Source of the DNA: a virus
Lineage: Duplodnaviria; Heunggongvirae; Uroviricota; Caudoviricetes
Reading direction: 5' to 3' (one strand)
DNA: 43,940 nt
Virus record (IMG/VR): IMGVR_UViG_3300009826_000019
Coordinates: 1-43,940 of that record
The first letter of the stretch is position 1. Every line of letters begins with the position of its first letter. The position numbers and the translations under genes are program-made. Positions 27,621 through 32,092 of the stretch are shown one piece after another. A model generated the notes under the pieces. It saw only the letters and a list, made by a program, of their open reading frames with translations, had not been told where the DNA came from and searched no databases.

Positions 27621-27649
27621 AGATCGGAATAATATTAAACCTATATATT
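27621..27649 (+). promoter_or_regulatory. ATCG-N17-TATATT element (outlier copy)
   Basis: AGATCG GAATAATATTAAACCTA TATATT, ending 7 nt before ATG 27657. Confidence 0.7.
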
Positions 27650-28429: not shown

Positions 28430-29200
28430 ATGATATGGAGTATAGAAAATAGAAAAGGTCAAGACCACCTCGTGGTAAAATATTGGTCAACTAATGATCT
28501 CATTAGAGACCAAATAATACCATTGGAATTTGATATTAATGGTAAAGGAATAATATCAGGAATGGTTGGAGATAAATTGGTAACATTCCAAATATCAATT
28601 GTACCCGTACCCGGCGGAAGTATTGAAGATCAATTAATGTTTTACAAAGACGGAGATTGTTTCGATATGGTACACCATAATAAATTCCAATCAAGAACAC
28701 ATATCAAAGAAACTATACTAAATGTTCTCTTTGAACACGGATACGTTGACAGACAACCAATAATCGTAGCAAAAAGAAAACAATTCGGCGTAGCATCCGA
28801 CCACGCAGGATGTAGATACAAAAACCTAATCCTATCATATCTACAAGATAAACATTATAACATAACAGACTACGGTACATTCACAGAAGACTCCTGCGAC
28901 TATCCCGACTTCGCTAAACCATTAGTAGAAGACATACTAATAAAAAAAATAGACGTAGGATTCACAGTATGTACAACCGGAAACGGTATGAACATGGTAG
29001 CAAATAGACACAAAAATATACGTAGTGCAATATGTTGGAACGTAGAAACAGCACACCTCGCAAGAGCACATAATAACGCAAACGTATGCTCAATACCCGC
29101 AAAATTCGTAAATATAGACGAACTATATACCATAATAAATACATTCCTCAATACAGAATTTGAAGGTGGAAGACACCTAAATAGAATAAATAAATTTTAA
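28430..29200 (+). CDS. rpiB: Ribose-5-phosphate isomerase B fused to an unknown N-terminal domain
   Basis: C-terminal ~140 aa: VASDHAG, DSCDYPDF, CTTGNG, ARAHNNAN, FEGGRHLNR. Confidence 0.88.
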   Translation: MIWSIENRKGQDHLVVKYWSTNDLIRDQIIPLEFDINGKGIISGMVGDKLVTFQISIVPVPGGSIEDQLMFYKDGDCFDMVHHNKFQSRTHIKETILNVLFEHGYVDRQPIIVAKRKQFGVASDHAGCRYKNLILSYLQDKHYNITDYGTFTEDSCDYPDFAKPLVEDILIKKIDVGFTVCTTGNGMNMVANRHKNIRSAICWNVETAHLARAHNNANVCSIPAKFVNIDELYTIINTFLNTEFEGGRHLNRINKF

Positions 29201-29205
29201 AAAAC

Positions 29206-29439
29206 ATGAAACCAATAGAAAAATATAAAGAACACCAATTAGAAAAATACTGTGGCGGAGGTCCAAAAGAACTCCAAGAACTCAAAACACAAGCGTTCTT
29301 AAACGGCTGGGAAGCAAGAAAAATTGAAGTAATATACCTCGTTTCATACCTGAAACTAATGTACGCCGCAAACCCACACCCCGATATAATGCAAACTGTT
29401 AGTGATATAATAGATAAATATGATAGCGAAATACTCTAA
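29206..29439 (+). CDS. Hypothetical protein
   Basis: Operon ORF. Confidence 0.6.
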   Translation: MKPIEKYKEHQLEKYCGGGPKELQELKTQAFLNGWEARKIEVIYLVSYLKLMYAANPHPDIMQTVSDIIDKYDSEIL

Positions 29440-29440
29440 A

Positions 29441-30001
29441 ATGACAGATAACGATATAGCACAAGAAATAATCGCAGGTAATACATACCTGAGAAATGTT
29501 CTCGTGAAACGCCACCAAAATAAGGTGTACGCTTATATCAATTCTATCGTGTATAACAAAGAAGACGCACAAGACCTAACACAAGAAACATTCGTCAAAG
29601 TCTTCCAAAATATACACATGTTCTCACAATCATATAAACTGACAACCTGGATATATACCATAGCAAGAAACCACGCTATCGACTTTAGACGATCAGCAAA
29701 AACACCAACAATATCAGTGGAAGACGCTCGAATTAACCTAGACGTATATATGACAGAATCACCCGAACATACACTAATAAGAGACGAAAGAAATAAAAAC
29801 CTTTGGGAAACAATAACAAAACTTCGTGACGTATACCAAACAATAATAGAATTAAGATATTATAAAGGATATACTTACAAAGAAATCGCACAAGAAATGA
29901 ATATCCCCGAAGGTACTGCTAAAGCATACGTGCACCAAGCACATAAAGCAATAAGAAAACTGTGGTTCCAAAGAAATAACCTAATACAACCAAAAAAATG
30001 A
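29441..30001 (+). CDS. ECF-type RNA polymerase sigma-70 factor
   Basis: Region 2 DAQDLTQETFVKVF...TWIYTIARNHAIDFRR; region 4 YKEIAQEMNIPEGTAKAYVHQA. Likely start ATG 29441 (track: 29420). Confidence 0.9.
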   Translation: MTDNDIAQEIIAGNTYLRNVLVKRHQNKVYAYINSIVYNKEDAQDLTQETFVKVFQNIHMFSQSYKLTTWIYTIARNHAIDFRRSAKTPTISVEDARINLDVYMTESPEHTLIRDERNKNLWETITKLRDVYQTIIELRYYKGYTYKEIAQEMNIPEGTAKAYVHQAHKAIRKLWFQRNNLIQPKK

Positions 30002-30150
30002 CCGAAACAGTATCACCAATATTTCTTGTTTGGTTCACACTAACCATTGCGTGGAATATCTATACAATAGTAAAAAATATAAACGAAATGGAAAATTTGG
30101 AAAAACAAAATAGAGAATGTAAATTTAAAAAATATAATGTTTATCCTTAA
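29998..30150 (+). CDS. Small membrane peptide, 50 aa (MTETVSPIFLVWFTLTIAW...)
   Basis: ATGA-coupled to the sigma gene; not in the track. Confidence 0.5.
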   Translation: MTETVSPIFLVWFTLTIAWNIYTIVKNINEMENLEKQNRECKFKKYNVYP

Positions 30151-30161
30151 ATAAAAATAAT

Positions 30162-30569
30162 ATGTCAGATTTAACAAAAAGACACCTAGAAACAATATCA
30201 CTCGTAGTAATACTATTTGGAACAGGTCTCTTCCTCACAAGTTGCTGCGGCGAAACCGAACCAACCCAAATAAACTTTTGGACAGGTTGGACAAGTTTCG
30301 TAGGTCTACTCCTTACATGGACAGCATTTAGATTCAAATCCAAATGTAGAAAACACTACCGAGACATTAATACAATGGGAATGAAAGTACATCATATCAT
30401 TTGGATAGCATGTGGATATGTATGGGTATTCGGAATGATATTCGGTGCTATAATGTGGATTGTAATTGGAATTAATCTACTTGACGATTGGGAACTCGAT
30501 GAAAAAGCATACCCACGTACAAAAAAATTCTTCCGCTGGTTAGGAAATATCCTCAATAAAAAAATCTAA
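30162..30569 (+). CDS. Three-TM membrane protein
   Basis: Three hydrophobic segments. Confidence 0.65.
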   Translation: MSDLTKRHLETISLVVILFGTGLFLTSCCGETEPTQINFWTGWTSFVGLLLTWTAFRFKSKCRKHYRDINTMGMKVHHIIWIACGYVWVFGMIFGAIMWIVIGINLLDDWELDEKAYPRTKKFFRWLGNILNKKI

Positions 30570-30575
30570 AATAAA

Positions 30576-31151
30576 ATGACAAAAAAACAATTTGGGCAAA
30601 AGAAATTTTATACTATCGTCTCATGGGGCGGCGAAACATACGACTTCGGACTACAATCCGTAGACATGGTAAATGCACGTATCGGTAGATTTGCAAAAGA
30701 AAAAGCAAATATCAAAATGTGGAAATCAACCAACAAAAAAGGATATCTCCACGAACTTGAATATCTACACAAAGAAGGTATTATGACCAAAATGTACCCC
30801 TCATTCCCCCAAATTGATAAATATATATACGGTCCCCTGGCGCAATGGTCAGCGCAGGTCACTCATAATGACAAGGTTTCAGGTTCGAGTCCTGAGGGGA
30901 CCACAATCGAACTTACTATTGGTCAAGAACTCATGAACGAATTTTATGATAGTGGGAATAATGGACTCATACCGAATATACACAAATTTGCTGAATTTTA
31001 TGATAATAAAATCTTGAATACTGACTACGTTCTCGAATTAGTACGATACTATATGAAAAAAAAATACCACCCGCATTGTACACTAATAGCAAACCAAAAC
31101 GTGGTGGAAATCCTTGAAGGTATAAAAACCAATGTGAAAAAAGAAGATTAA
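30576..31151 (+). CDS. Hypothetical protein whose reading frame runs through a tRNA gene
   Basis: 191-aa ORF; codons 86-110 coincide with the tRNA. Confidence 0.55.
   Translation: MTKKQFGQKKFYTIVSWGGETYDFGLQSVDMVNARIGRFAKEKANIKMWKSTNKKGYLHELEYLHKEGIMTKMYPSFPQIDKYIYGPLAQWSAQVTHNDKVSGSSPEGTTIELTIGQELMNEFYDSGNNGLIPNIHKFAEFYDNKILNTDYVLELVRYYMKKKYHPHCTLIANQNVVEILEGIKTNVKKED
30831..30903 (+). tRNA. tRNA with CAT anticodon, Ile2(lysidine)-like; elongator Met not excluded
   Basis: GGTCCCC/GGGGACC acceptor stem, GCGC/GCGC D stem, GTCA-CTCATAA-TGAC anticodon arm (G27.A43 mismatch), TCAGG-TTCGAGT-CCTGA T arm, A73, no encoded CCA. G1:C72 rules out initiator; C4:G69 and C5:G68 as in TilS substrates. Confidence 0.9.
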
Positions 31152-31606
31152 CCCTTCAACTTTTCCTTGAAAGAAATACCAACAGCAATAACCTCTTTTA
31201 TCAAAGTCTCAACGTCAGAAGCCTCAACAATCTTGTTGAATATCTCCGTGTCGTCAGCCAACGCCAAATCCTGATTGCGACTGTACTTGTAAGCAATACC
31301 ACCTATCAATGTGACACGAGCACTATAAGTTATAATACTATCATCAATGTCATTCTGAATATTCTCTTCCTTCGTGACAACAATCCTTAAACTCCGAACA
31401 ACCGCCTTAAACTCCGCCCTACCAAAACCGGAATCAAATAACCCAACATGATAACTGTTAATTGTAACGGGTGTCAATAATTCTCTGAAAAACAACATGT
31501 TATTCATACCGTCAATGGTATATTCGTCATAATTTCCTTTCTTAATGATATTGAGGATATTATGTTTATCGTCTTGGGTTAATGGTATGTTTTTTCTTAT
31601 TTTCAT
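31148..31606 (-). CDS. Hypothetical protein
   Basis: 152-aa ORF converging on the plus operon; the two stops share TTAA. Confidence 0.7.
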   Translation of the reverse strand: MKIRKNIPLTQDDKHNILNIIKKGNYDEYTIDGMNNMLFFRELLTPVTINSYHVGLFDSGFGRAEFKAVVRSLRIVVTKEENIQNDIDDSIITYSARVTLIGGIAYKYSRNQDLALADDTEIFNKIVEASDVETLIKEVIAVGISFKEKLKG

Positions 31607-31621
31607 GATATTTAATTTATA

Positions 31622-31629
31622 TATAAATA
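31622..31629 (-). promoter_or_regulatory. TATTTATA, candidate late-promoter box
   Basis: 15 nt upstream of ATG 31606 on the minus strand. Confidence 0.3.
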
Positions 31630-31720
31630 TAATGGGGGATTGTTTTTTGGAAAATAGTCAAAATTTTTTTCCGGAATTTTTTTGAGGCGGCATACATGGT
31701 AATGCGTTTGCCCTATGAAA

Positions 31721-31790
31721 CCCCCCCTCACCCCCTACCCCCTCCCTACGGGGTCCGTGGTGGGTGGGTACTCTCTCCCCTCCTCCCCAT
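31721..31790. other. C-tract / G-quadruplex-forming sequence
   Basis: C7-TCA-C5-TA-C5-T-C3 (31721-31746); the minus strand reads G3-A-G5-TA-G5-TGA-G7. Further G/C tracts run to 31790. Confidence 0.65.
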
Positions 31791-31886
31791 ATTGTTAAAA
31801 TATGTTAAAAAAGGGGAGGGTTTTTAACCCTCCAAATCCATTATGAAGTCTACAATGTCTCTGTACTTTTTGGGTGGGTACTCTCT
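31761..31886. repeat. 16-bp exact direct repeat TGGGTGGGTACTCTCT
   Basis: Copies at 31761-31776 (intergenic) and 31871-31886 (inside the 57-aa gene). Confidence 0.85.
31807..31833 (-). terminator. Intrinsic terminator overlapping the stop codon
   Basis: GGAGGGTT/AACCCTCC stem plus a U-run on the minus strand. Confidence 0.65.
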
Positions 31887-31997
31887 GAAAAAGGCTACCC
31901 TTGTGTCCCTACATTGCAACGCTCTGTAAAGTCTACCATAACTACCTTTTGAGGAGGCTAAACTTTTTATACCATTCATTATTTGCTCTTGTGTCAT
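31824..31997 (-). CDS. Small hypothetical protein, 57 aa (MTQEQIMNGIKSLASSKGSYGRLYRAL...DIVDFIMDLEG)
   Basis: Has its own promoter element upstream and terminator downstream; below the track cutoff. Confidence 0.75.
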   Translation of the reverse strand: MTQEQIMNGIKSLASSKGSYGRLYRALQCRDTRVAFFREYPPKKYRDIVDFIMDLEG

Positions 31998-32070
31998 TGT
32001 ATTATTATTTTATTGTTATACTATTTAATATAATATTTTCATGTTAATCCGATCTAGTTCATATATGGAT

Positions 32071-32092
32071 AAAAAAAAGGGGCTTTTGCCCC
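32071..32092 (-). terminator. Intrinsic terminator
   Basis: GGGGC-TTTT-GCCCC with an A8 tract on plus (U-run on minus). Confidence 0.75.

Follow-up and report, generated by a model that had tools for sequence, protein, structure and literature searches.

In bacteria, the only published nesting of a tRNA gene within a protein-coding open reading frame (ORF) is that of selC, which encodes tRNA-Sec, in the selB ORF of Alphaproteobacteria, and it is a bioinformatic prediction (Mukai 2021, Int J Mol Sci 22:4605, PMC8124441). For this arrangement it was proposed that processing of the tRNA leaves a stop-less upstream mRNA, such that the tRNA and the full protein are alternative products (PMC8124441). 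Phage tRNA genes are known in a more ordinary layout, in which separate small genes lie close to the tRNA on either side. In Acinetobacter phage AbTZA1 (T4-like, Straboviridae), for example, an 80-aa ORF ends 4 nt before a tRNA-Met and the next ORF follows 20 nt after it.

Here we analyse a phage locus at which a tRNA gene with a CAU anticodon lies in the middle of a 191-codon ORF, on the same strand. We put at somewhat better than even the chance that this is a real tRNA inside a real 191-codon gene, placed at the end of a transcription unit in a phage of ~367 kb, and that the transcript yields either the tRNA or the full protein. The window, that is, the whole stretch of DNA that was analysed, covers the first 43.9 kb of an IMG/VR virus record of 107,940 bp with an estimated completeness of 29%; the GC content of the genome is 35%. 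The 72-aa protein encoded by the 3' part of the ORF is also present on a 367-kb contig, and the source is therefore a jumbo phage. The stretch is present in six termite-gut metagenome runs from four studies. Termite-gut contigs from four runs show no differences over positions 29400-31700, with a depth of ~54x in two runs, and thus the nesting is not an assembly error.

The tRNA and the reading frame around it

A preliminary description of this DNA had proposed a complete tRNA on the sense strand of the ORF, with ARAGORN as a means of checking it. ARAGORN finds a single tRNA in the window, at 30831-30904 (+) with anticodon CAT, and Rfam family RF00005 matches positions 30831-30903 (+) over its full length with 63.7 bits, compared with a gathering score of 29. 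Both programs thus confirm the tRNA, which we take as the 73 nt at 30831-30903 (+). It has the pairs G1-C72, U3-A70, C4-G69, C5-G68 and C11-G24 together with A73, and U8, A14, the D-loop GG and the T-loop TTCGA are all preserved. All seven acceptor pairs are Watson-Crick, and the one non-standard pair is at 27:43 (G27-A43). The GC content is 58%, and CCA is not encoded. The minimum-energy fold of a 194-nt mRNA context retains the cloverleaf. No direct repeats that might mark an insertion flank the tRNA.

A search pattern made up of the CAU anticodon loop, a TTCRA T loop and the acceptor strand GGGGACC-A, whose acceptor-stem-plus-CAU combination was confirmed to match the window's own tRNA, has no exact match in 185,579 species genomes. 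From these comparisons, the acceptor stem of the nested tRNA seems to be specific to the phage. The same absence would also suit an inactive relic or captured sequence that serves only as a linker and gives no mature tRNA, as would the G27-A43 pair and the lack of an encoded CCA. We regard this explanation as improbable, because the Rfam score, the fully Watson-Crick acceptor stem and the intact U8, A14, GG and TTCGA elements speak against it, because decay in a genome of 35% GC should erode both a GC content of 58% and the pairing, and because the demand for ATA decoding is high.

That demand bears on the isotype. ATA accounts for 42% of isoleucine codons and occurs at 33.1 per 1000 codons, more often than ATG, which upholds the earlier remark that ATA codons are conspicuous in the surrounding genes. 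Criteria that separate the initiator from Ile2 and Met among CAU tRNAs have been set out by Silva et al. 2006 (PMC1635315). With G1-C72 and C11-G24, and with neither a C1-A72 mismatch nor A11-U24, the nested tRNA is not an initiator. The pairs C4-G69 and C5-G68 are determinants for TilS in E. coli and are frequent in tRNA-Ile(CAU) (PMC1635315; PMC11947777). Among phage CAT tRNAs sorted by rule, they are found together in 34 of 80 Ile2-type, 1 of 13 Met-type and 0 of 20 fMet-type sequences. A G3 or A3, or a C70 or U70, excludes Met and fMet (Silva 2006, PMC1635315); the nested tRNA has U3-A70 and so carries neither this mark of Ile2 nor C3-G70, the pair usually found in Met and fMet.

The mean differences lean only slightly towards Ile2, at 29.9 from Ile2-type tRNAs as against 33.2 from Met and 36.5 from fMet. 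The nearest tRNAs that share the D arm, L124 and L126, are identical to it at 62-63 of 73 positions, and they start with GGGCCC and are of the Ile2 type. In a translated search with the tRNA segment, the matches among CAT tRNAs include trnI of phages P1 and P7, which are annotated as tRNA-Ile. No match to the TilS family (PF01171) was found in the 108-kb record, which covers ~29% of the genome. Judged by its sequence, the nested tRNA is probably a tRNA-Ile2, which would read ATA. The Ile2-like character that had been assigned to it is thus supported by C4-G69/C5-G68, by the non-initiator pairs and by the Ile2 type of its nearest tRNAs, with the qualification that U3-A70 lacks the Ile2 mark.

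The enclosing ORF runs from the ATG at 30576 to the TAA that ends at 31151 (+) and encodes 191 aa. As had been described, translation of 30576-31148 is open, with no stop before, within or after the tRNA, and the cloverleaf begins exactly at codon 86 (30831 = 30576 + 85x3). The tRNA starts on the first base of that codon and takes up codons 86-109, and its last base is the first of codon 110. We divide the rest of the ORF into an N part of 85 codons (30576-30830, +), which ends in ...KYIY with no stop codon before the tRNA; a spacer of ten codons that is not A-rich (30903-30932, +; TIELTIGQEL); and a C part of 72 codons (30933-31151, +), which begins at an in-frame ATG. Residues 86-109, encoded by the tRNA, read GPLAQWSAQVTHNDKVSGSSPEGT. 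Codons 84, 132, 135, 171 and 183 of the ORF are ATA, the first of them one codon ahead of the RNase P site.

Coding potential was scored as a log-likelihood of codon usage, for which the long ORFs of the phage itself served as the training set. The N part and the C part each score 0.28 bits per codon, the same as the neighbouring sigma-factor gene. Scores of 409 open stretches of at least 70 codons are clearly bimodal; both flanks fall within the coding mode, and an 84-aa shadow ORF antisense to the N part, with a score of -0.14, falls in the non-coding mode. The tRNA segment scores 0.08, as expected if tRNA function, and not codon choice, shapes it. When shuffled, the 85 codons of the N part remain open in 0.18% of cases and the 82 codons of the spacer plus C part in 0.09%, and the open frame is therefore more than chance. 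The earlier impression that both flanks look coding is thus sustained; the N part would be open by accident with a probability of ~0.002, and the C part with one of 0.001. On the statistical evidence of codon usage, shuffles and start context, the N part is genuinely protein-coding.

One gene or two

Start contexts were scored with a matrix for positions -30 to -1 that was built from the putative genes of the genome, in which the signal is A-rich and free of Shine-Dalgarno sequences. On this matrix, for which the first ATG of every ORF was used in training and which thereby favours AT-rich upstream DNA, ATG 30576 scores +10.7 to +11.1, a value that is typical of true starts and is reached by only 0.2% of internal ATGs. 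The preliminary description had noted an in-frame ATG after the tRNA, at MNEFY, and had raised the alternative of two genes joined by chance. The ATG is indeed there, at 30933 (codon 120), but the alternative is weakened, since the context of this ATG (-8.8 to -11.1) is the worst of 180 scored starts. It is lower than all 114 and all 179 putative starts; at -11.1, it is exceeded even by the 42 of the 179 with coupling to the gene before them (their minimum is -9.25). Genes that follow the tRNA-Cys and the tRNA-Leu of the same genome have starts with a normal A-rich context (+7.5 and +6.5, respectively).

A fuller form of that alternative is that the locus holds three separate genes in the ordinary layout: the N gene would have lost its stop, the tRNA would be cut out, the C gene would be translated from ATG 30933 on the processed RNA, and any 191-aa product would be an unselected by-product of an accidental in-frame run. 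We consider this unlikely, though far from negligible. The layout itself certainly exists, with the spacings of 4 nt and 20 nt in AbTZA1 and with a tRNA-Trp in the same phage that abuts an upstream stop codon. As the 5'-proximal ATG, ten codons after the tRNA, ATG 30933 might be used on processed RNA despite its context, but that context is the poorest of all those scored. The IMG pipeline also called the 72-aa C piece alone, as a gene of its own, and left 30570-30932 without a gene. In our reading, however, this call reflects masking of the tRNA before gene calling and not a separate start, and it is then no evidence of a start. The spacer scores +3.9 bits in the frame of the ORF compared with -2.8 and -1.7 in the other two frames, a signal that runs against a separate C gene but is weak, as it comes from 10 codons only.

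The frequency of accidental continuity can be gauged from other tRNAs. The tRNA at 30831 is open in two of its three frames, and in this phage 15 of 36 same-strand tRNA frames are open, which counts in favour of separate genes. Outside the window, a 263-codon open frame at 101266-102057 (-) crosses a tRNA-Pro and a tRNA-Leu into the gene that follows a nine-tRNA cluster, and chance in-frame continuity into a downstream gene thus does occur in this genome, as separate genes would require here. The gene behind the cluster probably starts at ATG 101742, which has a normal A-rich context. The joint chance is nevertheless low: given a stop-less N gene, we estimate the probability of accidental continuity at about 2-7%, from an open tRNA frame (11-42%), an open spacer (~0.5, at a stop rate of 0.07 per codon) and the correct frame (1/3).

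The tRNA-Trp(CCA) mentioned above, in the region 72258-72515 outside the window, directly follows, with 0 nt between, the TAG stop of a 60-aa ORF that scores as coding (0.42 bits per codon), and RNase P cleavage there would leave the mRNA of that ORF ending exactly at its stop codon. Because this tRNA abuts a coding ORF, tRNAs in this phage sit inside protein-coding gene runs. The nested locus looks like such a layout of small ORF, tRNA and small ORF minus the stop; TAC, the last codon of the N part, is one substitution away from TAA or TAG.

With the poorest context at ATG 30933 and a typical one at ATG 30576, the balance therefore favours a single read-through ORF. Taken together, the evidence favours this ORF over two genes joined by chance, although it does not amount to proof.

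Relatives, neighbouring genes and rarity

Neither the N part nor the C part has a homologue in a word-index search at near and shorter lengths or in an exhaustive phmmer search over 1.84 billion representative proteins. The only piece of the ORF that is present in protein databases is the C part, as the 72-aa piece itself. Four other weak matches (P0004-P0007), all of which overlap the tRNA-coded stretch, were rejected: P0005 and P0007 read as translated tRNA arrays, with repeated copies of a motif like the tRNA-coded peptide, and P0004 and P0006 are repetitive proteins. A Pfam search with the ORF returned nothing. In PHROGs, phrog_23857, of unknown function, matches with an E value of 3.8e-6 only the tRNA-coded residues 81-113 (30816-30914); the C part has non-significant matches only, to phrog_36218 (E 0.03) and to an endonuclease phrog (E 0.19). 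Judging from phrog_23857, P0005 and P0007, some protein families or clusters may derive from translated tRNA genes.

Searches of IMG/VR with the N part, the C part, the neighbouring 135-aa and 152-aa proteins and the sigma factor gave no related loci. The N part has no match in metagenome contigs, and the ORF has no paralogue within the 108-kb record. An AlphaFold single-sequence model of the ORF has a mean pLDDT of 45, and the ESM Atlas gave no usable match. An untranslated ORF, in which the tRNA would have long non-coding flanks that are open by chance, would account for the lack of homologues and family matches for either flank and for the low confidence of the single-sequence structure prediction. 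Most small neighbour genes are likewise without a family match, however, and the chances of open frames (~0.002 and 0.001), the position of both flanks in the coding mode and the strong start context at 30576 make this explanation very improbable.

The nested ORF is the final gene in a tightly packed run on the + strand. The stop of the 135-aa gene immediately upstream (+) is 6 nt before ATG 30576. An ECF-type sigma factor encoded by the phage, with Sigma70_r2 and r4_2 domains (29420-30001, +), belongs to the same array and precedes the nested ORF by two genes. Further upstream, residues 121-255 of a 256-aa protein (28430-29200, +) form an RpiB/LacAB ribose-5-phosphate isomerase domain (E 4.6e-48), and the 120 residues before it are without a family match. 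The neighbour genes other than these two have no family match. On the other side, a convergent 152-aa gene (31148-31606, -; 0.33 bits per codon) has a stop that overlaps that of the nested ORF by 4 nt, with the TTAA at 31148-31151 forming the overlapping stop codons of both genes. There is no terminator-like site between the convergent genes at 31148-31151, and transcription from both sides would collide.

A copy of the promoter-like box CATCGGAATAAT, which is repeated in this phage, is located, with 1 mismatch, at 27622-27633 (+) and is the nearest upstream copy to the tRNA on the + strand, with no further copy between 27633 and the tRNA. No terminator-like sites are found on either strand over 29492-32078. 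We infer that the transcription unit that ends with the nested ORF likely starts at this box, and that the tRNA is likely co-transcribed with the mRNA.

The rarity of the layout was assessed with 108 other phage tRNA(CAU) genes, which were drawn from IMG/VR by a generic pattern. Across this set, 12% of same-strand frames are open, and a single tRNA (1/108, L066) is spanned by a frame on its own strand that is open for 40 codons or more on either side. Read by eye, this spanning frame is due to chance, as L066 is GC-rich and has a TAA just before the tRNA and an ATG just after it, and it was rejected. Two other candidates were also dismissed: L082 (367-kb contig) was set aside as a different phage, and L003 was a spurious word match with no tRNA present. 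In L124 (2549-2709), from a GC-rich IMG/VR phage, an Ile2-type tRNA(CAU) that follows a tRNA-Arg is open from tRNA position 1. Its frame runs on for 186 codons into the next gene, but no coding ORF precedes the tRNA, which is therefore not nested.

Proposed mechanism and comparison with known systems

In the mechanism that we propose, the unit would be transcribed from an upstream phage promoter without a separate promoter for the tRNA. On an uncut transcript, ribosomes that start at ATG 30576 would read through the tRNA to the TAA at 31151 and make a two-part protein of 191 aa, in which the 24 tRNA-coded residues could act as a hydrophilic linker rich in Gly, Ser and Pro. If the tRNA were to fold first, RNase P would cut after codon 85, and 3' processing and CCA addition would then release the tRNA. 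The 5' fragment would be left as a stop-less mRNA that requires ribosome rescue, and the only ATG on the 3' fragment would be the one with the very poor start context. Because excision of the tRNA would cut the mRNA, any one transcript would serve for the tRNA or for the full protein, not for both. Production of the tRNA, production of the 191-aa protein and the mutual exclusion of the two are expectations drawn from knowledge of RNase P and RNase Z processing. A scheme in which the tRNA is excised from the RNA and the flanks are re-ligated was rejected, as it has no support.

The arrangement likely arose from a layout of small ORF, tRNA and small ORF minus its separating stop, or from insertion of a tRNA at a gene junction. 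When the 73-nt tRNA is removed in silico, the frame of the N part enters ten codons, QSNLLLVKNS, and then a TGA that overlaps ATG 30933 as ATGA, the common form of junction between coupled genes. An insertion of 3n+1 length at a point where two genes overlapped could have had this result; the junction is not evidence for one, because an A after ATG is expected ~37% of the time.

It is doubtful that the nesting has been kept by selection as a switch in which every transcript is contested between ribosomes translating the ORF and tRNA maturation. If it has, the phage would tie its supply of an ATA-reading tRNA to ribosome traffic, and the ORF's own ATA codons, read by the same tRNA, would make a feedback loop possible. 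Switch or not, a tRNA in the middle of a phage gene would show that the selenocysteine system is not alone in having one stretch of DNA encode tRNA and protein at once, and the tRNA and protein outputs of a single transcript would trade off. The locus also bears on annotation: where tRNAs are masked before genes are called, the 72-aa tail alone is reported and the whole N part is lost, and such genes would be systematically mis-annotated and absent from protein databases. As a singleton without relatives, the nested locus adds a candidate to the described cases, not a proof.

Several known systems share parts of this arrangement. The trnI genes of phages P1 and P7 are, like the nested gene, CAT tRNAs, and a role in ATA supply fits the ATA-rich phage described here; they differ in that the records shown list only a tRNA under the match, with no CDS. 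AbTZA1 is alike in that small same-strand ORFs closely flank a tRNA(CAU), as in the tRNA regions of large phages. Its ORFs have their own stops and starts, whereas the nested locus has neither of these two features of the ordinary layout: the upstream stop is absent, and the downstream ATG is without a normal context.

The comparison with selC/selB is of another kind. There, selC extends the protein at its C-terminus and either stops at the start of the following ORF or overlaps it, whereas the phage tRNA is in mid-ORF and is followed by 82 further codons. The function of selB is known and is tied to its tRNA, and its layout is conserved across many genera; the phage ORF is without relatives or known function and is a singleton. 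The carrier is here a phage, and the tRNA is Ile2-like instead of tRNA-Sec. Nevertheless, in both cases a whole sense-strand tRNA is located inside a protein ORF, position 1 of the tRNA coincides with position 1 of a codon, and the insert begins with Gly. The either/or logic proposed for selC and selB is the same as that which we propose for the phage locus.
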